Shown in pieces: positions 7,201 to 60,615 of a DNA stretch of 64,000 nucleotides (position 1 is its first letter; every line of letters starts with the position of its first letter). The position numbers and the translations under genes are program-made. The notes beneath the pieces were generated by a model. The model did not search any database. It worked only from the letters and a program-made list of their open reading frames with translations, and was not told where the DNA came from. The DNA is from Naegleria gruberi (lineage: Eukaryota), in NCBI GenBank assembly GCA_000004985.1, contig GG738852.1; one strand, given 5' to 3'.

Positions 7201-9258
7201 AAGTAAGAATAATCTCTTCAACCCAATTTCATCGAGATTGTAAAGATTTTTACCGTAGGTATTTCTCCACTCTTCAAATTCCTTAATGTGGGCCTGATCA
7301 TCCTTGTTAAGACGTCTTAGGAGAATGTAAGAATAGTGAGTATTGATCAATTCTTCCTCACTTGGGCGCCACTTAGTATAATTCTTATCTTTCAATTCTT
7401 GTACGAGCTTGATGAATTCTCTTTCGCACAATGGATCATCAAAGAAACGTTTAGCTTCCAATACAGGATGTACTTGGAGGAGGAGCCAAATAATGAAATG
7501 ATCTTTCATATGATCTCCATATAATTCTACGCATTTTCTAATGCTTAACAACTGATAACTTGCTTCAACAGTTGGATCTTTTGAAATGTTAATAAAATTA
7601 CCCTTATGATGGAGAGTGGTTGAATCTGATAATTCATCTTCTCCAAATAATACTATTCTCATATTTAGCATTACTTTACGAGTAATGAAAGCGTACATTT
7701 GATTTGCCAATAAAATCCATTTTCCAATTATTCCCTTAGATACATCAGTAAAGATATTCTCTGCAGCTGGATACATGTCCTTTTCATCGAGTAATTGAAG
7801 AACTCTGAGCACAACAGCTTCATGAAGCATTTCTTTGGTAAAATTTGTTTTACACTTTTCCAATTCTTCTTGATTTTTCTTTTCGGTATTGTATTGAAAT
7901 TTCTTATCCAGAGCAGGAATTACTTCGAATGCATCACAACAAATATGTTGCGAGAGGGCACTGGATAATCTTTGAACTTTTCTAATCCATTCAGTAGAAC
8001 CTCTCTTTGGTGTAAAGAGTCCAAACTTGAAATTGATATCATTCTTAGAAGAGCTTCCATTATATTGCATTGCATGTGAATAGTCACACACAGGAAGATG
8101 TTGCAAAAATACGATTGATCTGGCATTTTCACAACACATGCTAAGCATCTTTCTGAGCTTTTGGGTCTTGACCTTTAAATCTTGAATAATGGAAAGTGGA
8201 AATTGAGTGGCAACATGTTTGGTTGTTAGGGAGTGCACTAAATTCATGAGCTTGTAGAATGGCATCATACTGGCAACTCTATAAACAAGGTCATTTACAA
8301 TATGCTTCAATTCTTCATCTCTTCCATTACAACTTCTATGATTAGTGCTGAGGAACATGATCATGACTCGAAAAACTACAACAAGAGTTTCCAAAATCAA
8401 GTGTTCATCACTTTTTCTAGAGGCTGATTGAGTTGCAAATTTAATACTATAAGTGCAAATACTCTTGAACATGTTGTTGATGAATGAGAGATACCTCTTG
8501 CAAATTTCAATGTCATAGTCAGATTTCACAGTCTTTGGCATTTCTGACATTATTTTCACCAATTCTGTAATGACAAAGTAAGCAGAACAGCTCACAGTTC
8601 CTATACATTCATGAGTTATACAATCATGTAAAAAATCAAATACAGTATCAACTTCATTTGGCTGCACAGTGTTATTAGGATTAAACTCGTAAGGTGAATT
8701 TCTAAATCCATTAACAAAAACATCCTGCATTTCATCATACTCGTAAGAATCCACTTTTTCATTCATTTTGGTAAATGTTGCAATTGATGAAAAATGTCCA
8801 GGTTGTTCCTTGATTGACTTGAAGAAGAGGGAAAGAAATGGTGGTAAAAAGCTTTTAAAGTCCACTTGTTCTTGTCTTAAAAATTCCAAGAGACAAGTAT
8901 TGGCTGTTGGTTTTGTTACGCTATTAGGTCCTAGAAGAAGAGAGGATTTTGGTATTGGTCCAAAAAGTACTTGATCCGGAAAATCAAGAATCAAACCACT
9001 ACTTTTTATCAAGTATATGAGGAAGGGAGAAATAATACTTCTCTTATACGTTGTGGTTACCATTTCATCACCGGGTGTATTCCAATTCGTAGAATATTCA
9101 TCCACAACATCAAGTGATGTAACTCTCAACCTCTTTTGTTCTGATGACTTGATATAATTTGGAAAACCAGTAGAATCATCCTTTCCACCTCCATTATTAT
9201 CATCCGAAAAATTTGAGTGATGACTACCACCATTGGTGAGGGATGATGATGGTAACAT
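4231..9258 (-). CDS. Large uncharacterised protein (1675 aa), probably alpha-helical/HEAT-like scaffold
   Basis: Single uninterrupted 5 kb ORF on the minus strand with ATG start (cat at 9256-9258). No catalytic motif recognised. Head-to-head with IFT81, sharing a ~240 bp promoter. Confidence 0.55.
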   Translation of the reverse strand: MLPSSSLTNGGSHHSNFSDDNNGGGKDDSTGFPNYIKSSEQKRLRVTSLDVVDEYSTNWNTPGDEMVTTTYKRSIISPFLIYLIKSSGLILDFPDQVLFGPIPKSSLLLGPNSVTKPTANTCLLEFLRQEQVDFKSFLPPFLSLFFKSIKEQPGHFSSIATFTKMNEKVDSYEYDEMQDVFVNGFRNSPYEFNPNNTVQPNEVDTVFDFLHDCITHECIGTVSCSAYFVITELVKIMSEMPKTVKSDYDIEICKRYLSFINNMFKSICTYSIKFATQSASRKSDEHLILETLVVVFRVMIMFLSTNHRSCNGRDEELKHIVNDLVYRVASMMPFYKLMNLVHSLTTKHVATQFPLSIIQDLKVKTQKLRKMLSMCCENARSIVFLQHLPVCDYSHAMQYNGSSSKNDINFKFGLFTPKRGSTEWIRKVQRLSSALSQHICCDAFEVIPALDKKFQYNTEKKNQEELEKCKTNFTKEMLHEAVVLRVLQLLDEKDMYPAAENIFTDVSKGIIGKWILLANQMYAFITRKVMLNMRIVLFGEDELSDSTTLHHKGNFINISKDPTVEASYQLLSIRKCVELYGDHMKDHFIIWLLLQVHPVLEAKRFFDDPLCEREFIKLVQELKDKNYTKWRPSEEELINTHYSYILLRRLNKDDQAHIKEFEEWRNTYGKNLYNLDEIGLKRLFLLSSYFTKPSSDFLIDFLKKPDLVESIKTIPNDSGKIELFYPFEGKIVPLSVNMILVLSVHARHRLFDSLCDSLKNLTPPQPKTDGGNSQPTTTDNFTEAYIPPAIVETLSRTLYCLPFAVNNFKDLLEGKTRSNHCNYVFLEIINFRLMRYLRYFGGDIFFHLYIEIYLAIGNTTLENNHHRLYLLLENFCIKAMLYLITDSKRVVHFFDKNASKLPPEKISETFKRTLISACMKVFKLSPIKLTNLDKSKKVLQRLVSVCGKTVEEFGKLTSKTRLYPDFIKTSFENIKITETEAPSTVAQQKNDPKKPEDPKEILKKVENLCDSFWDKRDKVSTMKNLENIPHSNYLLCAIWSRVFEKEFSKEKVAFWKKWIPMLLPPRLLVDSVYKMINHVLDEFLSEENESGDQDESIFVKVKQVSSTLTKLIWEFEFLPLETVCLALIDRAKNEDPNLSNKPTEDSTEKKAIEHKYAHNILLLIITDNQFSKRVDLFLDLNRNPNLFDVNDNFTAHHKYHSQYPEGFGAMKTDDFLNANPSYYNNICLRMIPILDLICRRLCELNLFDFLRQILDKYGGLFAYHDYPMTFVKELLLYYVDLPIEIKEMLFTIICKNEKYLLSDMDASFSAVAKSHFGISVDDSNFIKKTGKTYIDQTFDLHYFLTLITNISEVLPTIQEPRANHTYINPKHIFYEFSNTFELRLNAGIIEVMCLPLTLQEIISKLVDCLIQNTSVCPPHQLFKCSYTTGLFLASLPNYSTPTSPSVSDCLFAILMHFLHANPHPLLVNDLENTHEMGKVVKTPSECLLCILQTFLYSSGHESFISLRKFLAKARKSQTSKLETREQFYMVCRLLAPFIPKLHSDKWTNSDSGPAQDKEMKILLESSFQELVLLFLTIEWDVCPEIILAKKRKYSTVATSLFKQNDGDISEDEMLEQILYFFQHLFHILYSTSPPSRQQFLTSFYKELDKCTNTALKVRLRIIFTQKEVVVEPEKP

Positions 9259-38033: not shown

Positions 38034-40931
38034 TTATTCAATTGATATTTTGCAAACTTGAACATTTTCCTTGTGTGATGAAATTCTAACAGTTGAAGTA
38101 TATCTTTGCTCATTAGGTCTCATATAATTGAGGAAGAAGGTACACAAAACGGTTGTACCACCTGTCAAGCCCTGAGAATAATTCGAATAATAATTGGTGG
38201 TTGCAATGTAATCACCTGGTTGGGCTTTCTTAATCATGTATTCCTCAGGTCCATAACCCTCTCTGAAATCTCTAGAGACCAGACCTTTAATTCTTGTATT
38301 GGGATGACCATAGTAGGCATGTTCTCCATAGGGCTTTGGTTCTTCAACATGTAGATCCAAATCTACCATATCTGTATCCCATGCCATACTAATACGGATA
38401 TCGAGATCAAAATTATAAATCAAACTTTGGTCAACTATTGGCAAATTTGGATCTTTGAGAAGGAGATGGTTCATTTCCAATGCAACTGTGAGTTCAATTT
38501 CAGAAAAACGTTCATCCCATTTTCCTACAATTACCTTATTGAATAATTGCATGGCTTCTTCATACTTTCCTAATCTTTCCTTAATGAGAGCCAAATCTCT
38601 GAATGATTGAGGTTCGAAAGAGTTGATTTTCTTGACCTTTTCGAATATCAATTCGGCTAATTCCAATTCATCAGCTTGATCCAATCTATATCCAACAATT
38701 CTGTATAATTGTACATTTTCCAATTCCAATTCAACAATATTGGATAAAATTCTTACTCCAAGAGTTTTGTTACCTTGTTTGGTCAAAAAGTAATCAGCCA
38801 CATCCAAGTAGAAAGCAGGAGAGTCCTTATATTCTTTTCTCTGGTTTAAATATTCAATGTAAGGATCTTGGGCTGTGGTGATAGCTTCGTAATATGTTGC
38901 ATTTGGAGTCCAAGGAGTGATAGTAATGGAACCTTCTATTGGACTGGATGATGAATCAGTTGTACTTGTAATCCTTTTACGTTTGCTACTAGTGGGAATT
39001 TCATTTTCTCTTCTATCATCACTTATATCATAACTTCTATCATCAGAGGTTTGAGAAAATCGAGTTCTTCCTAGCAAACTTCTCTTTTTCTTGCTTTGAA
39101 TTCTTTTAAGAGTAGCCATGTCAAAATTTACTCTATGCCAATCAGTACGAAGTTTCCATTTTTTGATAAATTGCTTTAGTTTTTTCTTTTCCTGTTTTTT
39201 TGTGGAAGACTCGTTTCGTTTTTGAGATTCAAAGAAGGACTCTCTCCACTTTGGCAGACTCTCTGGTGGAACAATATTGTATTTAATGTACTGACTCACT
39301 GATTCGAGTACGAGAAGAGAGGTTGATTCAGTGACAATACTGAACTCTTGACTAGTTTTTCTAATTTCATCCATGAATAGATGGGAGAATGAGGAAAGAG
39401 ATTGGATTTTTTCCTGAGCCCATAAATGTGGAACTATGGCAGATTCTTTGGAAACTTGTACCCTAGTAGTTGGAATATTAATTTCCTGTGTTTGAATAAT
39501 CTTGGATCCATATTTGAATGTGACACCAACTGAAACTGTTGGATTATTGAAATTTTTGATTTTACCAAATAGGTTGAAAACTTCTCCTTCTTTTACCCCA
39601 ACTGGTTCGTGTGGATAAACTTGTTCCATATCACAACTCTCATAATCAGCTACCAAAAAAAGTAATTGATTCTTTCCAATTATTTCCAATATCTTTTCAA
39701 TACTAGTTTCATTTGCATTCAAATAAGCTCCTCCCGATTTCACTGCAATATTTTTCAACAGTTGACTGTTTGTAATTGCAGAAGTGTTTAAAAAGAATAC
39801 TGGCTTCTCAAAAGTGCATTTGGGTGTCAGCTCTAAACCAAAGTTGTGAATTCCATTTGTGAATGCAATACAATAATCAACGTTGCTACAGATCAATTCT
39901 TCTCCAAATAGCTTCATATTAGAGGCACCATCATAGACTACGCTGTTTTGAATAAATAGTAAAAGAGATTCTTTTGAATTAAATTCTTGTTGGTCAACTA
40001 TGGTATTACTAAATAATGATAAGGTAATAGGACCATTTTCTAATCTATTGAGAATTAATTTCAAGAGATTTACATTTTCCTCATGTTGATCTGATTGACT
40101 GAGCGAAACATCCCAAATTATTTGAACCTTATTTCCAATGCTCTCTAATTTTAACTCTTCTGGAATTGCAGAAACAGGAAGTGAAACCATAAAGTAGTCA
40201 TTCTCAGTAGCTAACAAAATATTATCAGTGCTCTTTACCTTTCTTACCAACTCAATTGAGAAACCTGTTAAGCTTTTACTCAAATCACTTTTTTCCAATC
40301 TTTGAATGTTTGAATTAGAACCAGACTTAATTAACTTCTCTCCATTTTCCATTTTCATTACAATACTGGAATCGAAGTCATGGATGGCACTCTCATTAAA
40401 CATGAATTCAACATTAGCATCTCTCAAAAGATTAAATTCTTGATACGAAAGTGGAAACCAAGCAGAGGCGGATAATTTGTTTCCATTTTCAACAATTTCT
40501 TTCATGATGATTTGATACTTGACTCTAATGGTCTTATCTTGTCCAAACACGAGAGGATAAACTCGTGTTTTGAAGCAATTAGAATTGTCAACCTTCTCGG
40601 CAATTGAAACTTGTTTGTGAGATCTCACTTCAGATTCGAATATCTTTTTTGAACTCTCCTTCTCCACAGGTACAGCATCAATCAATTCTCCATCCACTTG
40701 CATTGCAAATCCAATAACAGATGCACCATCCGGAAGTGGCATGATCAATTCACCTCCTAAATCTCTCTTAGAAACTTCATTTCTAAAAGTCATGGTCGAA
40801 ACTATTTGTACAATAGGATAGATAATATTACATTGAATCTTGTGCCCAACAATTGGTAAGATTGTCGAAGCCTTGTCAGAGTATTCTTCACCCACTCTCA
40901 CATGAATAACCTCTCTTTTGGAATGTGTCAT
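38034..40931 (-). CDS. VIT domain + von Willebrand factor A domain protein (VWA5A/PARP4-like architecture) with C-terminal helical-repeat region
   Basis: N-terminal VIT-like region (IIYPIVQIVSTMTFRNE...MPLPDGASVIGFAMQVDGELIDAVPVEKE...RVYPLVFGQDKTIRVKYQI). A vWA-like DxSxS (IIWDVSLSQSD) follows. The C-terminus has TPR-like repeats and a conserved tail. Confidence 0.55.
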   Translation of the reverse strand: MTHSKREVIHVRVGEEYSDKASTILPIVGHKIQCNIIYPIVQIVSTMTFRNEVSKRDLGGELIMPLPDGASVIGFAMQVDGELIDAVPVEKESSKKIFESEVRSHKQVSIAEKVDNSNCFKTRVYPLVFGQDKTIRVKYQIIMKEIVENGNKLSASAWFPLSYQEFNLLRDANVEFMFNESAIHDFDSSIVMKMENGEKLIKSGSNSNIQRLEKSDLSKSLTGFSIELVRKVKSTDNILLATENDYFMVSLPVSAIPEELKLESIGNKVQIIWDVSLSQSDQHEENVNLLKLILNRLENGPITLSLFSNTIVDQQEFNSKESLLLFIQNSVVYDGASNMKLFGEELICSNVDYCIAFTNGIHNFGLELTPKCTFEKPVFFLNTSAITNSQLLKNIAVKSGGAYLNANETSIEKILEIIGKNQLLFLVADYESCDMEQVYPHEPVGVKEGEVFNLFGKIKNFNNPTVSVGVTFKYGSKIIQTQEINIPTTRVQVSKESAIVPHLWAQEKIQSLSSFSHLFMDEIRKTSQEFSIVTESTSLLVLESVSQYIKYNIVPPESLPKWRESFFESQKRNESSTKKQEKKKLKQFIKKWKLRTDWHRVNFDMATLKRIQSKKKRSLLGRTRFSQTSDDRSYDISDDRRENEIPTSSKRKRITSTTDSSSSPIEGSITITPWTPNATYYEAITTAQDPYIEYLNQRKEYKDSPAFYLDVADYFLTKQGNKTLGVRILSNIVELELENVQLYRIVGYRLDQADELELAELIFEKVKKINSFEPQSFRDLALIKERLGKYEEAMQLFNKVIVGKWDERFSEIELTVALEMNHLLLKDPNLPIVDQSLIYNFDLDIRISMAWDTDMVDLDLHVEEPKPYGEHAYYGHPNTRIKGLVSRDFREGYGPEEYMIKKAQPGDYIATTNYYSNYSQGLTGGTTVLCTFFLNYMRPNEQRYTSTVRISSHKENVQVCKISIE

Positions 40932-43017: not shown

Positions 43018-44371
43018 ATTCATTACCTTAATACAATGAATATAAAGAATATTGAAAATCTCCGAAAGCAGTAAAAGGGACTGTGTGATTCTATTTCAAT
43101 AAATATTGTTTTTCATTTTGTAATTTTAGACGGGAAGCCTGCCAGGAATATGGCGACTATCCCGCTACAGTCTTTGACTGTATGAACAGTGAAGGCAACG
43201 AATCTATTGATTGTTGGTTCAGTAAGTTTGTTGTTTAGAAAAGCTTGCTACGTGACCATTTATTTATCACCTTTGAATTTTATCTATTTAGAAAGAGAAA
43301 CTTGTGGTTGATCAATAAACCTTCAAATTTCGAATTTGAGTCTTCAAATATTTGCTCTCACTTTTTCTTAGTTGAACTTCTTCATGAACAGGATTTACCT
43401 ACAAACCTGCGGCAAGTGTTTATTTCCAAGACAAAATAAAACCCTAACTCCAATACAGTGCAATGAAGATACTAAATGTTTAGTTGTAGTGCTTGTTCAT
43501 TCTGCTCGAGATTAGCTTTGAATACACAATCACCATGTTGATTAATAAAAGGAAAGTGTTGATTCCAATCTTAATAGAATTTTATAGATTAGGTTGTGTA
43601 CGGCGTAATTGTAATATTTTTTTCTTTTAATTGATAAAAAGTTTAAGGTACCAATCTGCATGTTCACAAATCCCCCATTCACAAACCATGGCTGGTTAGG
43701 AATGCAGCAATCATCTATGAACGAGGAAACCTACAGCGAAGCATGTTTCCAGTTCGATATCATGCTCAAGATATGTGACTACAGAGTCTTCATCTTGGTT
43801 AACCTCAAAGGTCAGATTGACTCAAAAAAGTCGAGTTTATGTATTCCTACAGAAAAGATCCTGTAGAAGTACAGTCAATGGTTTTATCAATCTTGCCACT
43901 AGGAGGTAGATATATTGCCCCAACGAGGAGAGGAATTGGAGATGGAAACTTATGGTTCGATTTATAATAATAAAATTCCTCATCATCAATAAAATATTTG
44001 AATAAGATTTTTTGCTGTAATGTTAGTAGTAGGGTGAGCGTGCAATAAGAAAGCTGTAGTAAGGCGAGAACTTGGGCGGTAGATTCATTGGAATTTCAAC
44101 TGCTCAACTTCATGTTGTTATTTGATGAGTCAACAAGTCTTGAGAGCAAAACAAGCCAGGATCGAAATAGTGAATCGATTTTCCAAGTTTGACCTGTTGA
44201 AAGAGAACAAGGTAAAGAGCAGCTGCTCACCACAAAGTTGTATGTTGTTTGGTTGTTGTGTGCGACTGCACAATTCAACCAAGGTATCTAACGTTCTTGT
44301 TAAATTCCGTACGTTACACAAAACCAACAAACTTTCAACACTCAAAAAAATTAATTTAATCCACTATCACA

Positions 44372-44641
44372 ATGACCGATCCAAAGGACCTCACTGAAAC
44401 TGAAGAAGTTGTTGAAGAAGAAGAACAAGAAGAAACAACAACAAAGAAGGCTGTTCCAAAGAGAACTAGAGAAGAAAAGGACGAAGAACCAGAAGAAGAG
44501 GAAGAAGCTGAAGCCGAAGTAGATGAAGACGACGAAGATGATGAAGAATACGTCGAAGAAGAGGAAGACGATGAAGATGAAGATGAGGACGAAGAAGACG
44601 ATGATGATGAAGATGAAGCTCCAAAGAAGAAGAGAAAGTAA
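44372..44641 (+). CDS. Small hyper-acidic protein (89 aa) with C-terminal basic NLS-like tail (prothymosin/nucleoplasmin-like composition)
   Basis: ATG in a good context (cacaATGa). More than 60% Glu/Asp (EEEEQEETTT...DEDDEDDEEYVEEEEDDEDEDEDEEDDDDEDE), ending in APKKKRK. The opposite-strand poly-Ser ORF 44356..44703 is its mirror-image artefact. Confidence 0.45.
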   Translation: MTDPKDLTETEEVVEEEEQEETTTKKAVPKRTREEKDEEPEEEEEAEAEVDEDDEDDEEYVEEEEDDEDEDEDEEDDDDEDEAPKKKRK

Positions 44642-45133
44642 ACTTGCTCACTGATCAATAGCTTAATTCCACAATTTTCAACAAATCTCTCTCCATACAA
44701 CAACCTACTCTCATCACACTTTATTTATATACCTAAATTGCTAAACCTCTCTACAAATCAACAAGCTTGTATTGTTGATAGATTTTCCTCTCTCTAGATT
44801 CTGCTAGCTAGTGAAACCACTCCTCACTACTACAACAATATCCCTAAAATTAGAGTAAATTTAAATATTTACCTGTTCTTTCAAAGTGTGTAATCTTCTC
44901 TCAATGATATGTTGGTACAAACGGGGAACAAGATTGGTAATAATATTGAGCATCCAATGGTTAGAGCTCTTGCTATCAAAAAGTAGATAATAGCTTTGGT
45001 TACTACTCCCAAGAACAAGGACTTTTAACATCATTACGAATTGCTCCTCTTATTGACTTTGTCCTCCTGCCAATAAATGGACGTTCACTTGTCAATCAAC
45101 AAAAAAACGCGAAAATTAACATTCCACATAACA

Positions 45134-45857
45134 ATGAGCAATAAATTCACTGGTGTTTTTCGTAGATTGTGGGAATCCCCAATAGGTTTGTATTCTTTGT
45201 TCTCTTCTTGTTGTTAATGATCATTAATTATAACTACAAAACTGAAAACAATGAAAATTTACGGTAAAAAAAACAATATTTTGTTACTGTTATACATGAT
45301 GACGATAATGATGATGATTGTATTTGCTCATCTGCTCTGATTTAAATTCATTGATTATTGATGACATTGAAATTATTATTATGGTGAACATCTACTTTTT
45401 ACCATTGGCCATGTTGATGATAATTATTATTATATTAATTGGAAAATGTTATATTCTATTAACAATCATCATTGATAATTATTCGGAATAATATAACAAT
45501 GTGGATATTTAATGATGATCAATAGGAATGAAAACTACTCACTTCTGGGGTCCAGTAGCAAACTGGGGTATTGCCATTGCTGGTTTGGCTGATTATGACA
45601 GACCACCAGAACTTGTTTCTGGTCCAATGACTTTTGCTCTTGCAGCCTACAGTGCAGTTTTCATGAGATTTGCCTGGATGGTAAAGCCTCGTAACATGCT
45701 CCTTCTTTACTGTCACGTTGTTAATGAAGGTGTTCAATTGTATCACTTGACTAGAAAGGTTAATTATGAATTGAATAAGAAACCAGTGGATGCTGCTCTT
45801 TCCACTACTGATTCATCAACACCACCACCAACTAATGTTACTGAAAAGAGTAATTAA
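45134..45857 (+). CDS. MPC1: Mitochondrial pyruvate carrier 1 (MPC1/BRP44L family), 2 exons
   Basis: Exon 1 is 45134..45185 (MSNKFTGVFRRLWESPI, donor gtttgt at 45186). Exon 2 is 45526..45857 (acceptor AG at 45524-25). The spliced product ...GMKTTHFWGPVANWGIAIAGLADYDRPPELVSGPMTFALAAYSAVFMRFAWMVKPRNMLLLYCHVVNEGVQL matches the MPC1 core (STHFWGPVANWGLPIAAI...RMTFALCCYSLTFMRFAY..PRN). Confidence 0.8.
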
Positions 45858-46356
45858 TTTGAGGAATTTTTTGGAATAAAGGTATTATTGATTAATAGTA
45901 TTATTCATAATGAAATACCTCAATAATCTTCATTAAATCTTCATCACCAAGTAGATCAGTCAAACATTAATGGCAAAATCAAATTGTAATGATTACCAAA
46001 ATGTATGGAAACAACCAATGGGTATTAACCTTGGTCATAACAAGTGTTGGTTTTCAAACATTATTTAGGCTGCCAACATGGCAATTTAATCCCTCATTCT
46101 TATTAAGACATGACAAATGACACTTGTTGAGGACCTATGACGCTGCCGACCAACAAATGTTTGAACTCCTCCCGCTTCAGTACGAAGCCATAAAATAGAA
46201 AAACAAATACCATTAACACGTTATCCTTTCGTCTCATAAAGGAGCAGAATCCTTCAGTATCATCATTTAGTCTTCATACTACTGAAAACAATTAGAAAGT
46301 TGCTAATTAACAGAGTTTCATTATCTATTTTCGAATATTATTATTGTTCAAACAAA

Positions 46357-48581
46357 ATGTCAGGAGATAATGAAGGGTTTATTGAAACCCTACTAATCAA
46401 TCTCTTCACAATACCAATAACAACAATAGCATCATCATTCCCTCATCACCATCACCAACAATATTCAACTAATCATGTCATGACCATAATGGCAAACGAA
46501 ACCTTTCCAACAATACTCAATAATAGTCAAACAAGTAATTCTACTTCCAATCGAACGGATTGTTCTCCCATTCTCTTCAACCTAGGCAAATGGAGTACTG
46601 AGAAGGAACCAAAGTTTGAATTTGGTTTATGTCCAGATTCAATCATCACTCCAATATTTTCATCAATTTTCCTTGCTCTCTTTCTTGGAATTTGTTTAAT
46701 TTCACTGATGGGAATGATATGGAAGAGAAGGAATGGATTTATACATGCAAGAAATCCAATTTACATGTTCATGACTATTGTGGCTGCATTGATATTCATT
46801 GGAGGTAATGGATTGCGATTCATGATTGGACGAAAGCTATTTCCCTGTGCAATTTATACTGTACTGTTTTTTGTATTGCCTCCACTTGTGAGTTTACCAA
46901 CAATTTTGAGATGTTTGAGATTGTTTTTCATGTGAGTTTTAATTGTTTAATATTATTAATATTATTTAATTAATATTTTGGTTTATTAATGTTTTTTTCT
47001 GGAATGTTTATTGTTACTGGATGGATTAATAATAGGTATAAATTGAATTTACAAAAAACTAAATTATTCGAATTGAAGAATATGGGAAAATCGAATCAAG
47101 CTATTCAAACAGGAGAAAATGTAAATTCACAAATTCAATCATTTGAAATGAATGTAACAAATAGTCAAAATAATTCATCATTAGGAGTTGTGGATTCGAA
47201 TAGTAATAGCTTAACTATTTCATCAAGTGAAAAACAAATTTATGGAAATGAGGATTTAATTCACAGAAGGTCAAACATTACCGAAATTATCAATAATACC
47301 AATCCTAGTACTACCATTGATCCAGAGAAGGCCATTGAACTCAATGCTAAGAGTATTGATATCAAGACAGCTGGAGTTTCACCAATTTTGAAATCTGTCG
47401 ATAATCCAAACGGAAATGTGGATTTTTCAACATCTCATTATTCGAATGGATCTTCAACAATGGAAAACATGTCTCAACAAGATCTGGTTGATTCCTCTCC
47501 AAGACTTTTCAAAAACAATGACAATTTATTTGATGTAGATGTTACAGAAACAGATGATAGTGATTCGTATTCAGATATTGACAGTCGATCCACTTGGGCA
47601 TTTAGAGATTTATCTGATTTACAATCAGAAGTTAGAAGGTTTCAAATATTTACCTTCATGTCAAGTTACAAGTTTGTTCTCATTCTCTATTCTACATTTG
47701 TCATTTTCCAAATAGCTTTGTGGTTAATTTTGGGAGGTGTTGAGGAAGCTCTCTTCTCCAACTCACTAAGTCATACTGGTGAGAGAATCTTTCTTTTGGA
47801 AGGTGGAATGCTTGTTTTTGATAGAGGATGTTCAATGAGCACCAAGATGGTCCTCATCATTGCAGGAGAATCAGTTATTTACATTATTTTTGAAATTGTA
47901 GCACTGATATTATGTATCAGATCAGACAGAGACACATGGAGTGTGAAAAAAGAGGCCATTCTCATTATCATCTTTCAAGTTATAGCAATAATTGCATTTG
48001 TAGTGACTGGTTTAATTGATGAAATTGTTACATTGACAGATTACTTTATTCCATATGGGTATTCACTCATGACCTTTTCACTTGTTGAAGTTTTCACTAC
48101 TGTGCTATTGCCAGTTGTGTATGCAATAGTGAGTGAGTATAGGAATTTAAGGAGAATGGATACAGAGTTTGACTCTGAGTTGGAACAAGTTCTACGTAAT
48201 AGAAAATCATTCAATAAGATGTTGGACTTTGCACGTCGAAGTTATGCACCTGAGAGTGTGTTGTGCTATCGAGATATTCAGAGATTTAAAAAGTTGAGAG
48301 CTAACAATCGAAGAAAGATGGCTCATCACATTGTAAATTCATATCTAACGAGTGGATCTCCTTTGGAATTGAATATTGACAATATTATAATAAGAAAAAA
48401 GGAATTTTCTGATAGGGTTTCTAATACCAATGAAAAGCTTCCAAGAGACATGTTCAATCAGATCCAAGACCATTGTTTGGTTGATATGAGAGACATTTTT
48501 GATCGTCTGAGATCTTCTGATAAGGAGATTTACCAAATGATACAAGATTGGAGGATGAAGCAATCAAAATTAATTAACTGA
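46357..48581 (+). CDS. 7TM receptor-like protein with C-terminal RGS domain (7TM-RGS), paralog A, 2 exons
   Basis: Exons are 46357..46931 and 47036..48581. The intron runs gtgagt at 46932 to AG at 47035 (104 nt). Splicing restores ...LRCLRLFFM/YKLNLQKTKLFEL, collinear with the intronless paralog C (...AYFMYKINLQKTKLFE). It has an extracellular Cys pair (CSPILFNLGKW...GLCPD), 7 TM helices with a long Asp/Ser-rich loop after TM3, and an RGS domain (FNKMLDFARRSYAPESVLCYRDIQRFKK...AHHIVNSYLTSGSPLELNI...IQDHCLVDM..FDRL). Confidence 0.7.
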
Positions 48582-48821
48582 ATTTGATTCAATCATTTAT
48601 TGTAACAACGGTTATTATGATTATTTCAAAATATTAGTATGGCAAATTGACATAAAAGAAGTTAGATATCAGCATCAGAATCAGAATGTACCTGAATAGA
48701 GAATGCCATATCTGAATCAGTAAATACTCAAATAGGATTTTGTTTGATTTTGAAGTTGTTTCTCGACGATATAAAAGGTTGACTTGGTTCTGGCTTAATT
48801 CAAAACAATAATCAGAAAAAA

Positions 48822-49298
48822 ATGAAAAAGATTTCAATCATTATTCTTTTAGCATTGCTATTGTTGGCAGTTATCATTGGCATTGAATGTCAACAAAATC
48901 AAGATCCTTACTCTTATGACACTTATGGTTATGCTCAACAACAAGGAGGACAACAACAACAACCAAGTTCCCAACAAGGTTCTCAAGATCAACAAGGTTC
49001 ACAAGACCAACAAGGTTCTCAAGATCAACAACAATTCGATCCAAATCAACAAGGTCAAGTTGATCCTAACCAACAACAACAACAAGAAATGTTCGAACAA
49101 ATGAGCTATGGTTACAGAAGACCTTATAATTATAGACCATACTACAGACCATACTATAGACCTTATTATAGACCTTATTATAGACCATACTACAGACCAT
49201 ATTATAGACCATATTATAGACCATATCATAGACCATATCATAGACCATACAATTACAATCAATATGGAAGTCATGGTGGAAATTATGGAAAATATTAA
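48822..49298 (+). CDS. Secreted low-complexity protein: signal peptide, Gln-rich GSQDQQ repeats and a C-terminal (RPYY)n Tyr/Pro/Arg repeat
   Basis: ATG start and a hydrophobic signal (MKKISIIILLALLLLAVIIGIEC). GSQDQQ occurs three times. It ends with YRRPYNYRPYYRPYYRPYYRPYYRPYYRPYYRPYYRPYHRPYHRPYNY encoded by a 12-nt tandem DNA repeat. Confidence 0.6.
   Translation: MKKISIIILLALLLLAVIIGIECQQNQDPYSYDTYGYAQQQGGQQQQPSSQQGSQDQQGSQDQQGSQDQQQFDPNQQGQVDPNQQQQQEMFEQMSYGYRRPYNYRPYYRPYYRPYYRPYYRPYYRPYYRPYYRPYHRPYHRPYNYNQYGSHGGNYGKY
49117..49252 (+). repeat. 12-nt tandem repeat (agaccatactac/agaccttattat variants, ~11 units) encoding (RPYY)n
   Basis: Direct inspection: tatagaccttattatagaccttattatagaccatactacagaccatattatagaccatattatagaccatatcatagaccatatcat. 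Coding, inside the preceding CDS. Confidence 0.8.
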
Positions 49299-49618
49299 AT
49301 TGTTAACAATAAAGAAGTGTGACCTTTGTGAGAGAATATTGAAACCTTTTTATCTGCTGGACATGAGTTGTTTTCAATCCTTTCATTTCTTGAACAATAT
49401 CTAATTGCTTGTTGGAGTTCTTCGAATAATCTGTCATGTCATTGAAACAATGCCTCTGCAGAAAACTTTGAATATATCTCCAATACAGAACAATTTTCAA
49501 GTGCTTAATGGTCTCTTGTACCGTAAAGTCCTGAGAGATGTGGTCTACAACCATGGCTATTAAGTTTCGTCAAAAAGTTTGTTATACCACATGTTGCTGT
49601 TTACACTACTATAACAAT

Positions 49619-50692
49619 TTATTCATTGAGTTGGAAAAGAGCCCAATCTACTCTTGGTTGAATGGTCTTTCCATCTTCCATCACATTAGAAATCATGTGT
49701 CCAGCAAACATTTCAGTCTTATACTCTGTGCCATTATCATCGACCAAAATTGGAACATTGACGTATCCTCTTGGAATATCTTGTGAGTCAATCTTTGGCC
49801 ATGCACCAGGTTGACAATCTCCTCTCCATATTCCCTTCTCTGAAAATACACAGAAAGTTGTAATCCATCCACCCAAATAACGAGGACCTGATCCACCGCC
49901 TGAAATGTGAGCTACTCTATTCCACCACTCCTTATTGGGATTTCCCTTGATTGATTCTACAAAATGATCCAAAACAGGGAATAACAAAGCAGACCATTGT
50001 TCCATATATCCTTCCTTTGTGTCAAATTCCAATAATCTATTAGCTCTTTCTCTAATCTTAACCCAGTCCTCAACCTCCCCCAATAATGTAACACTTGGCA
50101 AGTTACAACACAACGAAAACTTGTAATCAAAGTAATTCTTCATAGCAGCCATAAGGACCACTGCTCCAACCATCCTATCATTCTCAGTGGTGGTAGTAAA
50201 ATCTGGCATGACCCATTCTCTTACGCTTGGATCCTTAATATTCTGTGCAATTTGATTGGTCATATCCAATGAGAGGGAAACATAATCAGCCGAGAATAAA
50301 TTACCAGAACCGTAGACTGTTAGCTGTTTCTTTCCATCAAAGTCTACAAATTTGCCTCTCAATTCTTCTGACTTTCCATTCACATAATTTGAAAATTGAG
50401 TACAAATAGCTAGCCATACATCATCAGGTTTAATGACCAAATTATGGTGATAGGAATAGGCTTGAACAGCACTTTTTACAAAAGAGTTTGATCCCAACTT
50501 GATCATGGATTCATCTATTTTACCAAAACTTGATGTAATCGGTTGCTTTACATAAACTTCCTTTTCTTCAGGAGTCTTTGAAGAGGAATAGTTTCTCTCC
50601 TTTCCAGGAAGAATTTGTTCAGGTTTAAAGGCTTGTTGGGGTTTGGAAACATTTTCAACCTTCACCTCTGTAACTTGGAATGTAATGGGCAT
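49619..50692 (-). CDS. Hypothetical conserved protein (~357 aa; possibly DUF4419-like)
   Basis: The ORF-track start at 50806 is GTG; the first ATG is at revcomp 50690-50692 ([10 protein letters not shown]...). It is globular-looking and Trp/Gly-rich ([37 protein letters not shown]...[19 protein letters not shown]). The family assignment is tentative. Confidence 0.4.
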
Positions 50693-51069
50693 TTTTTTTC
50701 GTGTTGTAATTTTGTTCCTCGTTACTGTAAGGTGGAGTTTATTAATAGGAAAAGGTGTAGCTATTATTTGGGTTGAACAACCACACACAGGTATTGTAGA
50801 GTTCACCTTTGGTGAACCACTCTTATGATGAACTCAGCTCAATTAGCTCAATTGAATTGTAATCTAATTGTTGTTTGTCCAAGTTAACACTTAGTAAAAT
50901 ACAATGTTTGTAAATACTGTATATAATACAAATGTGGCATTGTATTCTTGATTGACTTCCTGTTGAGCCAATGGTAGGTCTAATTCAAACGCTTTGACCA
51001 GGTCATTACAAGTGCAATGACCATCAAATTCTATCCTATAGTTGAGAGGAATCTGAGATATCAGGATGT

Positions 51070-51237: not shown

Positions 51238-53177
51238 TTACTGTGTAGAATTTGTTGATTGAACTGAATTGTTCAAAGATTTGAGTTCTTTGACAATGTC
51301 ACCAATTTGCTTGTTGGAGCTCTTCAATCTTTCGAATAGATCTGTCATGTCGTTAAGGCAATGATCTTGGATGAGTGCAAACAAATTGTGTGAAATATTT
51401 GGATTTTCCTCAATTAACTTTTCAATTTCACTCCTCCTTTCTTCAATTTTGCTAATATTCAATTCTAGTGGAGCACCAGCAGTAAGGTAAGCCTTCAAAA
51501 TGTGAGTGGCTGCCTTCTTTCTGTTTGCCTTTCTTGCCTTTTTAAATCTCTGTATATCTCTCCAACACAAAACGCTCTCAGTGCAATAACTTCTTCTTGC
51601 AAAGTCAAGTAAGATTTGATAGGTCTTTTTGTTTTTCAAAACCTTCTCAATTCCTGTTTCTTTCACAGCTTGTTTCCTTTCAGTGTCATTGTTGGATTGT
51701 GAGAGCTTGCTCTTTCTGTCGCTGATAAAGGCATACATGGCAGGCATTCCAACACACATAATAATTTCAATCAGCTCATAAATCCATAACGCCAATCCAG
51801 TTGGAACCAAATAGTCCAATAACTTTTCTGTAATATCCAACATGCCAACAACTATAAAAATGATGGCAGCTCCAACCTGAACAATGATTAGAAGGAGTGT
51901 TTCTCTCTTAATTCCCCATGTATCTCTATCAGCCATAACTGCCAAGATGAGGAATACCAATTCTAAGAAGATGTAGACCAGTGCATGGACACCAACAATC
52001 AAGACTGTTGTAGTAGTGAGACCACAACCTCTTTCAAAGACAAACAGACCACCATCAAAGAGGAATAATCTCTTTTTGTTTGGATCTGTACTTGCATTAT
52101 AAGTCACCTCCTCAACAATTCCTAAAACTACCCAAATTATAACTCCAACAAGGAATGCAATGGCATAGGTGGAAAGGATAAACTTTTTGCTGATGAAAAA
52201 GTTCAGAATGGCCAATTGTTTAACTTGTTTTTTAACATCACTAACTTCCTTAAATTCACTCATATTCCAAGTTGAAACGTCAGCTTGTGATTCAGAATCT
52301 CCATCAGTTGTTGAATCATCCCAATTTGGAGGATCGAGTCCAATATCCTCATAATTGTTAGGATCAAAGTTGTTAACCACCTTGTGAATTTGTTCTTGCC
52401 TTCCTGCCATGTCTTCCAATCCAAATATTTTAGAGTCTGATTTTTTCAATTCCACCTCAGTTTGTTCCTTTAGCTGGTTAATTGGTACAATGCCATTCGG
52501 GTTTGTCACTGATGTAGCACCAACAGTGCTGTCTTTTGCTGAAACATCAAAAAGTTTCATCTTTAAAAGATTAATCTTGTACATGAGATAAATTCTCAAC
52601 ATTCTGAAAACTGTCGGTAGCATTACAGCTGGAGGTAATGTAAAGAAACTAAAAGTAATTATACCACAAGGGAATATCTTTCGTCCGATGATTATTCTCA
52701 ATGTTAATCCAACAACAAATACGAAACCAGCACATAAAGTCATGTACAATGATGTGGGATCTCTTGCCATAATATGTCCACTCTTCCTCTTAAATATCAC
52801 TCCTGTTGTTGTCAAAAAGAAATGTCAACAAACAATTTAAAACAATAAATTATTGAAACTTTACCAATTGCACTGAAAATAACACTTATTATATAAACAA
52901 TCACAAAGGTCAACACCAAAGCAAAACTAATATAAGTATCAGGACACAGCCCATAATCAATTGTGCCATTATTTCCCTCCCGAGACCATCCTCCCAAGTT
53001 GAATAATATAGGATCACATGCAAAAGCACTACTATTAGTTGAATTCAATAATCCAATGAATGGACTTGTATCATTTAAAATTCCTCTTCCAATCATCCAC
53101 CCATTGATATTCTCCCGAAGGAACACCTCCAGAGCATCTTCCATTAATCCAAAGTGTGTGGGTTGACTTGCTGGCAT
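51238..53177 (-). CDS. 7TM-RGS receptor-like protein, paralog B, 2 exons
   Basis: Minus-strand exons are 52865..53177 and 51238..52802. The intron runs gtaaag (revcomp of 52863-64) to cag (revcomp ending 52803), 62 nt. The splice joins ...FSAIG to GVIFKRKSGHIMARDPTSLY..., collinear with paralog C (LTGVGVFWKRKSSHVEARSPIY). Same extracellular Cys pair (CDPILFNLGGW...GLCPD), 7 TM and C-terminal RGS domain (YQILLDFARRSYCTESVLCWRDIQRFKKARKANRKKAATHILKAYLTAGAPLELNI). Confidence 0.7.
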
Positions 53178-54390: not shown

Positions 54391-56391
54391 TCAAACTTGA
54401 TCTGAAAATGTTACCGTTGGATTCATCAACGTTAACGTAGATGTGGAATTTACAAGATTGGAACTTGTTGCGGAGGTATCTAACTTGCTTTCAGTATAGG
54501 TAGATGCTTTTTTGTAATTCTTTACAAAATCTGAGATTACATTATTAGAATTTTTCAATCTATCAAACAAATCTGCCATGTCATTCAAACAATGGTCCTG
54601 CACAGCTTTGAAAATATCAGTTGGAATTTTGCCATTGGTTGATTCTATTTGCTTCACTTGTTCAAGAATTTCGGCACTTTTGAAGGTAATCTTTGGCATG
54701 TTAAGTTCTAATGGAGCACCAACGGTCATGTAAGCATTGACAATGTGGTTTACTGCCTTTTTCCTCTGACTTCTCTTTGCCTTCTTGAATCTTTGAATAT
54801 CTCTCCAACACAAGACACTCTCAGTGCAGTAACTTCTTCTAGCAAATTCGAGTACAATTTTGAACATTTTACGATTTTTGAGAACCTTCTCTAAGCCACT
54901 TTCAGATTCGGTATTTTTGGCTAGTTTCTTGTCAAATATTATGGAACGAATGACTGGAATAGTGACACACACAATTACTTCAATGAACATGTACCCCCAC
55001 AAAATGAAACCATATGGGAAATAGGCATCTGTAACAGATGCGATGAAATCAATATTAGCAGCAACTACAAACAAAATAGCACTAGTTAATTGAATAACAA
55101 TCAAAATCATAGTCTCCCTCTTAATTCCCCAAGAGTCTCTGTCTGCTGTAAAGGCAAATATTAAAAATACCAATTCCAAGAGAATGAACAAGATTGATTC
55201 TACAGAAATCATAATGGTAGTTGTAGTATTCATACCACAACCGTGTGAAAATAGAAGAATACCACCCTCATTCAAGAATATTCTCTTCTTGTTTGGATCT
55301 GTACTTGTATTGTAAATTGCTTCCTCAGCAACACCAACAATAAGCCAAATAATTACACCAAATAAGAAGGAAAGAATGTAAATCACAGTAATGAATTTGA
55401 CACTGATTAGGAAATTGAAAATTTTCAACTTTCTCAATTCTTTTTGCACATCTGCCAAATCCTTATATTCACTCATATTCCAAGTTGAAACGTCTGCTTG
55501 TGAATCATTATCAGTATCAAAATTACTTTCATCATCATCATCTGTAACAGTATTTGAAGTAGTTCCATTAATGGAATCAAGTTGAGGTTCATATTCATGA
55601 TTTTTTGCAATTACTCTAGAGAGACGTTCTTGTCTTTTCACTATACCATCCTCTTGTCCAAAGAATTGTTGTTGTTGGGTTCCACTTTGAGTTTCAATTG
55701 TAAAATTATCAATTGCTTGTTTCAATTCAATATTACCTGAAGTGTTATCACCTCCTGTATTTGTAGTACTGGTATTTTGTAAATTAGTCGGTGATTCGAA
55801 TAGTTTAGTTTTCTGTAAATTAATCTTGTACATGAAATATGCTCTCATTAATCTGAAAATAGTAGGTAATGTCACAGCTGCAGGAAATGTGAAAAAGCAA
55901 ATAGTTAACAAACCACAAGGGAATAACCTTCTCGAGATGACAATTCTCAAAGTCATTCCCACAATGAAAAAGAAAGCAGCACATAAAGTAAAGGCGAGAT
56001 AGATTGGACTTCTCGCTTCGACGTGACTGGACTTTCTCTTCCAGAAAACACCTACACCTGTCAATAATACAGTAATTATATATACAATCATAAATGCTAG
56101 ACATGTGGCAAAGGCAAAATAGGTATCATTGCAGAGACCGTATTGAGATGTAACGTTCATTTCACGAATCCATGGCGTACCGATGAGAGAGGAATCACAA
56201 ACTTTAGTATTATTGGTGGTGAAATTTAATGTTGAATTATCTGAAAGCATGGAGAATGGTTCCATTAATGAATGTTGAAAATATGAATTAATCAGGAGAG
56301 CTGCGATATTGTTGGATGGTGTGATGGCATATTGTTCAAAGAAAGGAGAGAGTTGCTGACTGTTGGCAACTTGAAATTGTTGCAGAGACAT
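54391..56391 (-). CDS. 7TM-RGS receptor-like protein, paralog C (intronless, 666 aa)
   Basis: Single ORF with ATG start. N-terminal ectodomain with sequons and a Cys pair, 7 TM helices (TM1 FATCLAFMIVYIITVLLTGVGVF ... TM7 YFPYGFILWGYMFIEVIVCVTIPVI) with a long acidic loop after TM3, and a C-terminal RGS domain (FKIVLEFARRSYCTESVLCWRDIQRFKKAKRSQRKKAVNHIVNAYMTVGAPLELNM). Confidence 0.75.
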   Translation of the reverse strand: MSLQQFQVANSQQLSPFFEQYAITPSNNIAALLINSYFQHSLMEPFSMLSDNSTLNFTTNNTKVCDSSLIGTPWIREMNVTSQYGLCNDTYFAFATCLAFMIVYIITVLLTGVGVFWKRKSSHVEARSPIYLAFTLCAAFFFIVGMTLRIVISRRLFPCGLLTICFFTFPAAVTLPTIFRLMRAYFMYKINLQKTKLFESPTNLQNTSTTNTGGDNTSGNIELKQAIDNFTIETQSGTQQQQFFGQEDGIVKRQERLSRVIAKNHEYEPQLDSINGTTSNTVTDDDDESNFDTDNDSQADVSTWNMSEYKDLADVQKELRKLKIFNFLISVKFITVIYILSFLFGVIIWLIVGVAEEAIYNTSTDPNKKRIFLNEGGILLFSHGCGMNTTTTIMISVESILFILLELVFLIFAFTADRDSWGIKRETMILIVIQLTSAILFVVAANIDFIASVTDAYFPYGFILWGYMFIEVIVCVTIPVIRSIIFDKKLAKNTESESGLEKVLKNRKMFKIVLEFARRSYCTESVLCWRDIQRFKKAKRSQRKKAVNHIVNAYMTVGAPLELNMPKITFKSAEILEQVKQIESTNGKIPTDIFKAVQDHCLNDMADLFDRLKNSNNVISDFVKNYKKASTYTESKLDTSATSSNLVNSTSTLTLMNPTVTFSDQV

Positions 56392-59427: not shown

Positions 59428-60615
59428 ATGGATCTCTACATTCCTTCTGATTTAAACAATTGTGATGATGATTTTTGTGACGAAATGTTGCCAGTTGAAG
59501 AAAAATTAGAAAGAAGAATGGATGAATTGACAATTTTAGATGGTGATGCATTTGTCTCAAACACAACAAGCAATTCTCAAACAACAGGTGCTTGGATTCG
59601 TGCTAAACATTTGGAAGAAGAAGGTTATGATCAAGAATTGGTTGACCACAGTGAAAATTTTGTCGATTTGGTTATTGTAATGGATTGTACTGGATCAATG
59701 TCTGGTGAAATTGAAGTTGCCAAACGAACTGTAACTACTATCATCTCAACACTTCATGAAAAGTTTCAATCTGATTTGAGATTTTCAGCTGTCAGTTATA
59801 GAGATCACACTGATGATTATGCAGTTAAGGAATTCCCATTTACAAAGGATTTGAATAAGGCAAAGGGTTATATCAATACAATGTCAGCTCAAGGTGGAGG
59901 TGATCATCCTGAAGCTTTGGCATCAGCTCTCTATGTCATTAATGAAATGCCATTTAATAAGAAGGGAAAGAAGATTGTTGTTTGGGTTGCTGATGCTCCT
60001 CCACATGGAATGAAAACATCATCTGATAGCTATCCAGAAGGATGTAAGGATCAACAAGGAAATGTCATTGATTGGATCAAATTGGGATCTGCTCTCCAGG
60101 AGAAGAATGTTGTCTTTTATGGAATTTTGTGTGAAAGAGCAAAGGATGATCAACAATTGACCTTGTTTATGGATTATTTGACAACTAAAACTGATGGTAA
60201 ATGTTTACTCTTAACAGATGCTAATAAGATACCAAATTTGGTGATTAATGGTTGTGTGGAAGATGAAGATATGGACAATCTTGTTGCAAAGAAAATTAAA
60301 GAATTGGGAGAAGAGAAGGTCAATAATTTGGGAATGGATGATTTACTTAAACTCATTCACAATGAAACATCCTCTGAAAAGGTTGCCCAAGTTAAAACCT
60401 TTGAAATTGCCTCAACCAGAACTAAGAATTTGATGAATTATTCAACCTTATCTGATATGCAATGTGATGATTATGTTTCAGCTCAGAATGTCATGACTAG
60501 AAATGATGATTGTGAGGCAGAGAGCGATTCTTTTGATGATTATGGAGGTGTTTACTACAAAGCACCAACTATGGAAAAGGTGGCAAAGGCCTATTCCAGA
60601 AATTTGAGAAAGTAA
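59428..60615 (+). CDS. von Willebrand factor type A (vWA) domain protein with acidic N-terminus
   Basis: vWA/MIDAS-like core: DLVIVMDCTGSMSGEIEVAKRTV...FSAVSYRDHTDDYAVKEF...GGGDHPEALASALYVINEMPFNKKGKKIVVWVADAPPHG. Resembles the vWA of alpha-kinase/copine-type proteins. Confidence 0.6.
   Translation: MDLYIPSDLNNCDDDFCDEMLPVEEKLERRMDELTILDGDAFVSNTTSNSQTTGAWIRAKHLEEEGYDQELVDHSENFVDLVIVMDCTGSMSGEIEVAKRTVTTIISTLHEKFQSDLRFSAVSYRDHTDDYAVKEFPFTKDLNKAKGYINTMSAQGGGDHPEALASALYVINEMPFNKKGKKIVVWVADAPPHGMKTSSDSYPEGCKDQQGNVIDWIKLGSALQEKNVVFYGILCERAKDDQQLTLFMDYLTTKTDGKCLLLTDANKIPNLVINGCVEDEDMDNLVAKKIKELGEEKVNNLGMDDLLKLIHNETSSEKVAQVKTFEIASTRTKNLMNYSTLSDMQCDDYVSAQNVMTRNDDCEAESDSFDDYGGVYYKAPTMEKVAKAYSRNLRK

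Follow-up and report, generated by a model that had tools for sequence, protein, structure and literature searches.

A predicted secreted, tyrosine-rich tandem-repeat protein of Naegleria gruberi

The locus and its product

The window analysed here is a 64-kb stretch of Naegleria gruberi DNA (contig GG738852.1). It has about 33% G+C and carries long, closely spaced open reading frames (ORFs). Downstream of an ORF for a 7TM-RGS protein and upstream of a DUF4419 ORF lies an ORF of 158 codons that appears to be an intron-less gene (Table 1). The RGS and DUF4419 ORFs are each 100% identical to NCBI entries named 'predicted protein [Naegleria gruberi]', which places the window in the nuclear genome of this species. 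Overlapping ORFs of 60-98 aa are present in other frames and on the opposite strand.

Table 1. Features of the 158-codon ORF and its flanks (positions in the window)
Feature	Position	Strand	Evidence or remark
Conserved upstream blocks (putative promoter and 5' leader)	48735..48812	+	Identical or near-identical in the related Naegleria contig L009
ORF of 158 codons, ATG to TAA	48822..49298	+	Intron-less gene (predicted)
Signal-peptide-like N-terminus MKKISIIILLALLLLAVIIGIEC, codons 1-23	48822..48890	+	Hydropathy, predicted helix, ortholog identity
Acidic Gln-rich spacer, residues 24-94	48891..49103	+	Composition, charge; ends in the conserved hinge FEQM
GSQDQQ x3, 18-nt tandem repeat within the spacer	48978..49031	+	Tandem Repeats Finder
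Basic Tyr-rich tail, residues 95-158	49104..49295	+	Contains the RPY array; C-terminal sequence NYNQYGSHGGNYGKY
RPY-unit array: RPYNY, RPYY x7, RPYH x2, RPYN	49119..49253	+	Tandem Repeats Finder, translation
Stop codon TAA (49296-49298) and AATAAA (49308-49313), within TAACAATAAAGAAGTGTGA	49296..49313	+	

The encoded protein has four parts, which in order are a signal-like N-terminus, an acidic Gln-rich spacer, an RPY array and a Gly/Tyr end. Written in full it reads MKKISIIILLALLLLAVIIGIEC, followed by QQNQDPYSYDTYGYAQQQGGQQQQPSSQQ(GSQDQQ)x3QFDPNQQGQVDPNQQQQQEMFEQM, followed by SYGYR-RPYNY-(RPYY)x7-(RPYH)x2-RPYN-YNQYGSHGGNYGKY. Two residues are especially frequent over the whole length, namely tyrosine (29/158) and glutamine (32/158).

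The leader starts with MKK, continues with an 18-residue hydrophobic run, ISIIILLALLLLAVIIGI (I4-I21; 14-18 residues hydrophobic by inspection), and ends in ECQ. It can be divided into an n-region with KK, a hydrophobic core and a c-region GIEC, and its Kyte-Doolittle 9-mer means reach 3.7. By the -1/-3 rule, cleavage would be expected after C23 or G20. Cleavage at the inferred site C23|Q24 would leave 135 residues with a mass of 16.8 kDa, a pI of 9.05 and an N-terminal Gln. By hydropathy and inspection the leader is the only hydrophobic segment of the 158-aa protein, whose C-terminus is not hydrophobic, and so we see no grounds for a polytopic membrane topology or a GPI signal.

The remainder of the protein falls into two blocks of opposite charge. 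The spacer (residues 24-94) contains 31 Q and 7 D, has a net charge of -9 and is devoid of basic residues. The tail (residues 95-158) contains 25 Y, 12 R, 11 P, 5 G and 3 H and has a net charge of +13, and a dibasic RR is placed exactly where the basic block starts. Tyrosine thus accounts for 25/64 residues (39%) after the EQM hinge. The original prediction had rightly described the tail as Tyr-rich, and its figure of about 30% was slightly too low. A single-sequence AlphaFold model has one confident helix over residues 2-25 and a short helix over residues 85-94. The pLDDT of about 45-56 outside these helices fits intrinsic disorder for the rest of the chain.

Two in-frame tandem repeats

Both blocks contain short repeats. 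Tandem Repeats Finder reports the 18-nt array of the spacer at 48972-49031 (period 18, 3.3 copies, 90% matches). The three GSQDQQ copies named in the original prediction are present there, and they differ at two nucleotide positions (TCT/TCA and GAT/GAC), both of which are synonymous.

The 12-nt array of the tail is the top-scoring tandem repeat of the whole window (49129-49249, 10.1 copies, 89% matches, 0% indels, score 179). Its unit is AGA CC(A/T) TA(C/T) TA(C/T). The earlier count of 'about ten' RPYY or RPYH units was fair, as there are seven perfect RPYY units (residues 105-132, 49134-49217), two RPYH units and one RPYN unit. Across the ten 12-nt units, variation is confined to positions 6, 9, 10 and 12. 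The seven RPYY units differ from one another only at third codon positions, and always synonymously, and the replacements of Tyr by His and of Tyr by Asn are restricted to the three 3'-most of the ten units. An Asn is also present ahead of unit 1, in the RPYNY lead-in. About 19-26% of random substitutions in the 12-nt unit are expected to be synonymous. Five changes that are all synonymous have a probability of about 3e-4 to 1e-3, a rough figure that takes an inferred number of independent events.

Coding signal and flanking elements

A codon-usage model was built from the window's other long ORFs. It gives frame 0 a log-odds score of 0.44 bits per codon, within the range of the window's 25 long ORFs (0.23-0.61 bits per codon), and scores the other five frames at -0.13 to 0.11. 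The ORF uses the locally preferred codons, with AGA for every Arg, CCA or CCT for Pro, and CAA for Gln. The overlapping antisense and alternative-frame ORFs were rejected as coding on the basis of their codon usage and of the pattern of conservation.

Putative promoter and poly(A) elements flank the ORF. The upstream blocks are, in order, GGATTTTGTTTGATTT (48735-48750), TTGTTTCTC, a TATA-like GATATAAAAGGTT, TGGCTTAAT and CAAAACAAT. The TATA-like element itself, TATAAAAG, lies at 48770-48777, 52 nt 5' of the ATG. A TATA-like hexamer is found within 120 nt upstream of only 4/21 other long ORFs of the window. On the downstream side, AATAAA begins 10 nt past the stop codon.

A syntenic ortholog with a different repeat

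An ortholog of the upstream RGS protein (P0175, 78% identical) is encoded on the 10.8-kb Logan contig L009 from run SRR25266747, which derives from a related Naegleria. This contig is collinear with 43620-48902 and 51263-52948 of the window at 78-88% nucleotide identity. Directly downstream of the RGS ortholog, and in the same orientation as in the window, lies an ATG-initiated ORF (8592-8969) that encodes MKKISIIILLAIVLLALLIGIECQNNQQGYQQGQYDPNQGQQQYNPNQQYNPNQQYDPNQQYDPNQQDSYEQMGYGNNYGYHRPYGYGYHYGYHRPYGYHYGYHRPYGYHNGYGYPYHYGYHGHY.

The beginning of the gene is well conserved. Through Q24 the two leaders are identical at 20/24 residues, and all four replacements within residues 1-24 exchange one hydrophobic residue for another. 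Six synonymous codon changes are found in codons 1-26, five of them in codons 1-24. For codons 1-26 of the two genes we obtain dN of about 0.17, dS of about 0.7 and dN/dS of about 0.24. The GIECQ motif is invariant between the two species. Together with the hydropathy of the leader, this identity bears out the earlier call of an ORF with a signal-peptide-like N-terminus.

Conservation extends to the flanks. The upstream blocks are kept as GGATTTTGTTTGATTT ... GAT[A/T]TAAAAGGTT ... TGGCTTAAT ... CAAAACAAT, and the TATA element of the related species reads TTTAAAAGG. Beyond the gene, the ortholog has TAACAATAAA unchanged, 8 nt past its stop, and GTGTGA comes next in both species. This downstream block was read from the raw sequences, since the automatic alignment misplaces it.

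The interior of the gene has changed far more. The length difference between the two coding sequences is 99 nt, which is divisible by 3. DPNQQ motifs and the EQM-YG hinge are common to both proteins. GSQDQQ is missing from the ortholog, which has four to five copies of QQY(N/D)PN in its place. The tail of the ortholog is built of GYHRPYGYHY x3 without an RPYY array and is Gly/His-rich, with Tyr 20/52 (38%), Arg 3 and Pro 4. The tail charge is +13 with 3 His in N. gruberi versus +3 with 9 His in the ortholog, and the spacer charge is -9 versus -5. The RR at the start of the basic block is not kept in the ortholog. Despite the unlike repeat units, tail Tyr content is almost the same in the two species (39% and 38%).

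The arrays have been replaced through slippage and unequal exchange. The ortholog carries GYHRPYGYHY x3 instead of RPYY, so selection acts on the architecture and tyrosine density of the protein and not on the RPYY peptide. The original prediction had proposed purifying selection on the peptide. Such selection is supported for the coding frame by the synonymous-only variation and by the dN/dS of the leader; it does not hold for RPYY as such.

These comparisons also bear on whether the ORF arose by chance when a 12-nt minisatellite expanded in intergenic DNA. Stop-free repeats do open several frames, as the overlapping ORFs of other frames and of the opposite strand illustrate, and a search of the large protein collection brought up no match to the target, unlike the N. 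gruberi models of both neighbours. Such an origin is nevertheless very improbable. Frame 0 alone is coding-like, the variation among the RPYY units is exclusively synonymous, and the start, signal peptide, stop region and promoter/poly(A) blocks have been kept in the related species although its synonymous sites are close to saturation. We therefore read the region, from its sequence features, as a genuine gene, because it combines coding-like codon usage in one frame, synonymous-only RPYY variation, a TATA-like box and AATAAA, and a syntenic ortholog.

The annotation status of the gene is less clear. The search of the large protein collection brought back the N. gruberi models of both neighbours and nothing that matched the target protein. 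Exact-sequence look-ups returned no record for the target, for the neighbours or for the product of the related contig, and as the look-ups were blank for these other proteins too, this absence is weak evidence. The gene seems, with some uncertainty, to have no counterpart in the N. gruberi protein models that could be retrieved.

The conserved leader could also be an uncleaved signal anchor, which would make the product a type II membrane-anchored surface protein, either an adhesin or a component of the glycocalyx, with its Gln-rich and Tyr-rich blocks exposed at the cell surface. The 18-residue core (I4-I21), with KK before it and E after it, exceeds a typical signal-peptide core, AlphaFold models a 24-residue helix over the segment, and the ortholog has a segment of like length and character. 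We regard an anchor as rather improbable, since the two species have exactly the same GIEC-Q c-region, whose residues at -1 and -3 are small or allowed, and this suits a conserved cleavage site. In addition, the sub-threshold HMM matches of the protein are only to N-terminal signal or lipoprotein leaders.

Phyletic range and database searches

The gene is missing from the corresponding position in two other members of the genus. In both Naegleria lovaniensis (L010) and Naegleria fowleri (L011), a very large minus-strand gene lies 42-86 bp downstream of the RGS ortholog, and the syntenic position has no small ORF. Searches of these two loci by blastn and tblastn recovered no counterpart of the target, and tblastn of both orthologs against all loci retrieved found nothing further. 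Two scans of JGI metagenomes, one using a nucleotide pattern of the signal peptide and one using profile-derived peptide patterns, likewise yielded no further ortholog. Matches to the DUF4419 neighbour were considered as a second route to synteny and set aside as uninformative, as all of them are paralogs at unrelated loci or lie on a virus-like contig. On present evidence the gene seems confined to the N. gruberi clade.

Whole-protein searches, both word-indexed and exhaustive (HMMER), found no eukaryotic relative and returned low-complexity matches only, which we do not accept as evidence of homology. These searches missed the ortholog on L009 too and are thus insensitive to sequences of this kind. 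Among protein families, Pfam gives only FAM176 at 16.4 bits against a cut-off of 31.5, and NCBIfam gives only sub-threshold matches to N-terminal signal or lipoprotein leader regions. The ortholog also has only sub-threshold family matches. The best match in a PDB sequence search is non-significant (E 1.4).

The best statistical matches are unnamed secreted prokaryotic (YRPY)n miniproteins of 94-147 aa, in about 30 clusters with E values of 1.8e-7 to 1e-2. Examples are P0001-P0003, P0009, P0012 (from a Pirellulaceae metagenome-assembled genome) and P0025 (Haloarchaeobius amylolyticus). They belong to no Pfam or NCBIfam family, and the genomic context of one of them was uninformative. They consist of a signal peptide, then a short spacer, then a Y-R-P-Y-type array without interruption, about 100 aa in total, and resemble the target in this layout. 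Many of them have an EVGYRYRR lead-in and an aromatic/hydrophobic PGVSxWxGF C-terminus, and they have no Gln-rich block; beyond the array, including these two end motifs, the target shows no similarity to them. The search for YRPY/RPYY homologs that the original prediction had suggested finds matches in the repeat of these prokaryotic proteins and no eukaryotic homolog.

Could the N. gruberi gene be a horizontally acquired copy of such a miniprotein? About 30 bacterial and archaeal proteins with a signal peptide and YRPYYRPYY-type repeats are the sole database matches at E < 0.01, a G-Y-R..RRP lead-in precedes the array in these proteins and in the target, and Naegleria feeds on bacteria. We consider this very improbable. 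The likeness is limited to the low-complexity repeat, and composition-adjusted BLASTP produces no alignment for most of the matches. The leader and spacer have no similarity to the prokaryotic proteins, and the codon usage of the gene is typical of Naegleria. Moreover, the ortholog of the related Naegleria has no RPYY array, which indicates that the array of N. gruberi is a recent local expansion. The resemblance between the target and the prokaryotic proteins most likely reflects convergence.

Proposed function

Our best explanation is that the gene encodes a secreted, disordered, two-block protein that forms cross-linkable extracellular material. We hold this explanation as a whole tentatively, at somewhat less than an even chance. 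Its preferred function, which we infer, would be that of a self-associating, cross-linkable matrix, cyst-wall or adhesive protein. The 158-aa precursor would enter the secretory pathway by means of a cleavable N-terminal signal peptide and give rise to a mature protein of about 135 aa (about 16.8 kDa, pI about 9). The released protein would comprise an acidic Gln/Asn/Pro-rich block (-9) and then a basic (RPYY)n block (+13) in which about 40% of the residues are tyrosine. Short in-frame tandem repeats would make up both blocks and turn over fast by slippage and unequal exchange, while selection would preserve frame, signal peptide, charge asymmetry and tyrosine density. During transit the acidic block would keep the sticky tail soluble. 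Once outside the cell, the Tyr/Arg tail (Tyr/His in the relative) would self-associate through pi-pi and cation-pi contacts, and oxidative tyrosine cross-linking could then fix it into a cyst wall or a substrate-adhesive layer.

Arg/Tyr stickers are known to drive the condensation of low-complexity domains, and the R/Y tail is an extreme form of the sticker grammar behind such condensation. The repeats of the spacer (QQY(N/D)PN in the relative and QQFDPNQQ in N. gruberi) resemble in composition the PQGGYQQYN-type repeats of the Sup35 N-domain. The N. gruberi spacer is Asp-rich, and Asp disfavours amyloid. Prion-like and sticker domains are intracellular, whereas the target carries a secretion signal. 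In a bolder version of the preferred explanation, the protein would be a two-block polyampholyte, with an acidic prion-like Gln/Asn block and a basic Arg/Tyr block, that self-coacervates outside the cell into an adhesive or wall material, and the independent evolution of (R-P-Y-Y)n in the widespread prokaryotic miniproteins would point to a cross-domain 'RPYY' motif of extracellular materials. We consider this version improbable.

Cross-linked tyrosine-rich proteins are established components of resistant walls in protists, for example in the oocyst and sporocyst walls of Eimeria (PMC4776368, PMC2726925). The coccidian wall proteins, which include GAM56, GAM82 and the tyrosine-rich sporocyst wall protein of Eimeria and TyRP of Toxoplasma, are secreted, contain tyrosine-rich low-complexity sequence and are cross-linked in the resistant wall (PMC4776368, PMC2726925). 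The target has in common with them a signal-like leader and a very Tyr-rich region (39% of 64 residues). It differs in being much smaller, in consisting almost entirely of short tandem repeats, in its acidic Gln-rich block and in belonging to a different eukaryotic supergroup. Neither word-indexed nor exhaustive HMMER searches detected homology to GAM56, GAM82 or TyRP. A search of the literature found nothing relevant on RPYY repeats, on cyst-wall proteins of Naegleria or on tyrosine-rich encystment proteins. N. fowleri and N. lovaniensis form cysts without the gene at the syntenic locus, so the protein is not a core cyst-wall component of the genus. A role in the cyst wall would be at most that of a lineage-specific accessory component.

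The main rival to a cross-linkable matrix protein is a precursor from which an antimicrobial-like host-defence peptide, either secreted or phagosomal, would be made. According to this explanation, an anionic pro-piece neutralises a cationic Pro/Arg/Tyr-rich peptide (Gly/His/Tyr-rich in the relative), which the bacterivorous amoeba uses against its prey or competitors. The order of the parts, in which a conserved signal peptide precedes an acidic spacer (-9) and a variable basic tail (+13), is the classic layout of an antimicrobial-peptide precursor, and the RR is placed right at the start of the basic block. A hypervariable tail behind a conserved signal peptide, as seen across the two species, is typical of fast-evolving defence peptides. 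Furthermore, the tetrad R-P-x-x repeats recall Pro/Arg peptides of the Bac5 type.

The secreted NLP/CNC (caenacin) peptides of C. elegans, which are rich in glycine and tyrosine and are infection-induced candidate antimicrobial peptides, offer a second point of comparison (PMC2453101). They are small secreted proteins with a signal peptide and Tyr-rich short repeats, and they diversify rapidly between species (PMC2453101). The tail of the relative (GYHRPYGYGYHYGY) comes near to them in composition; the N. gruberi tail is Arg/Pro/Tyr-rich and not Gly/Tyr-rich. The target further differs from the NLP/CNC peptides in its long acidic Gln-rich spacer, in being present as one copy in the window and not as a tandem cluster, and in the lack of homology, and the YGGYG motif is absent from both Naegleria proteins.

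We nevertheless consider a defence peptide unlikely. The RR site is lost in the ortholog. The N. gruberi tail contains neither PRP nor RPP triplets, which are characteristic of Pro/Arg antimicrobial peptides of the Bac5, PR-39 and apidaecin type, and the ortholog tail has Arg 3 and Pro 4 against Tyr of about 39%. Since Arg and Pro fall in the ortholog while Tyr stays, the feature that has been conserved is tyrosine, and not charge or proline. Known antimicrobial peptides do not usually contain 40% tyrosine. Finally, the window holds no paralogs, clustered in tandem or otherwise.

Whichever of these functions applies, the gene is an orphan, lineage-restricted case of a familiar class, the fast-evolving secreted tyrosine-rich repeat proteins, and these results do not overturn current understanding. 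The two-species comparison makes plain that the selected traits are composition and architecture and not the repeat sequence. If the matrix explanation is true, the protein would offer a first candidate for a component that is tyrosine-based and not a lectin in the cyst wall or adhesive layer of a heterolobosean. It would, moreover, give a compact example from nature of an Arg/Tyr 'sticker' polymer that is secreted. The apparent absence of the gene from the N. gruberi protein models retrieved illustrates how low-complexity secreted proteins escape annotation. As Arg-Pro bonds are trypsin-resistant, the protein would elude standard proteomics as well.

The DUF4419 Gene Next to the Repeat Protein Gene

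In the window, a DUF4419 gene is placed between the gene for the tyrosine-rich (RPYY)n protein and the second RGS gene. Comparison of the window with L009, a contig from a related Naegleria (Logan, SRR25266747), revealed that the DUF4419 gene is absent from this contig, in which the ortholog of the repeat protein gene directly adjoins the second RGS gene. Window regions 49345-49455 and 49619-50806 were compared with window region 51263-51365 and L009 region 8970-9250. Immediately after the repeat protein gene, the window carries an extra copy of the 3' end (~110 bp) of the second RGS gene, and the 24-nt core of this copy (49429-49452) matches its counterpart (51340-51363) at 83%. Together, the L009 arrangement and the RGS 3'-end copy suggest that an insertion or a duplication brought in the DUF4419 gene.

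In Naegleria, DUF4419 occurs in multiple copies; among its matches there is also a Catovirus protein. The NCBI model of the window gene has 295 aa while the ATG ORF has 357 aa. A homolog 58% identical to the window copy is found on L005 (Logan SRR12245243_628), a 71 kb contig of short, tightly packed genes, almost none of which match Pfam. This contig looks like that of a giant virus or another mobile element and not like a Naegleria chromosome.

RGS Gene Cluster and Other Genes of the Window

Three paralogous genes that encode a C-terminal RGS domain are located in the window within 10 kb of sequence, and the same cluster is found in N. lovaniensis (C9374_011229, C9374_011232, and C9374_011233). 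The first RGS protein, inspected by eye, appears to have a multi-pass membrane N-terminus; its NCBI model comprises 499 aa versus 530 aa for the ATG ORF. VIT and von Willebrand A domains, both of extracellular type, are encoded by two further ORFs of the window; no evident connection between these ORFs and the repeat protein gene was found.

RGS genes and VIT/von Willebrand A ORFs of the window
Feature	Position	Strand	Domains
First RGS gene	46989-48581	+	C-terminal RGS
Second RGS gene	51238-52815	-	C-terminal RGS
Third RGS gene	54391-56391	-	C-terminal RGS
ORF	38034-40931	-	VIT, von Willebrand A
ORF	59428-60615	+	VIT, von Willebrand A

Prokaryotic (YRPY)n Proteins and Other Tandem Repeats

The prokaryotic proteins P0001-P0032 (loci L007 and L008, 6001-6297) form a widespread, unnamed family of secreted proteins of ~100 aa, for which neither Pfam nor NCBIfam has a model. 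Each carries a signal peptide, (YRPY)n with EVGYRYRR as its lead-in, and a C-terminal end of the aromatic PGVSxWxGF type. The signal peptide of a haloarchaeal member is Tat-like.

Besides the (RPYY)n-encoding repeat, the only sizeable tandem repeats in the window are at 3631-3699 and 44471-44618. The latter is imperfect and GAA/GAC/GAT-based (period 15-36, ~70% matches), and would, if translated, give an acidic poly-Asp/Glu tract.
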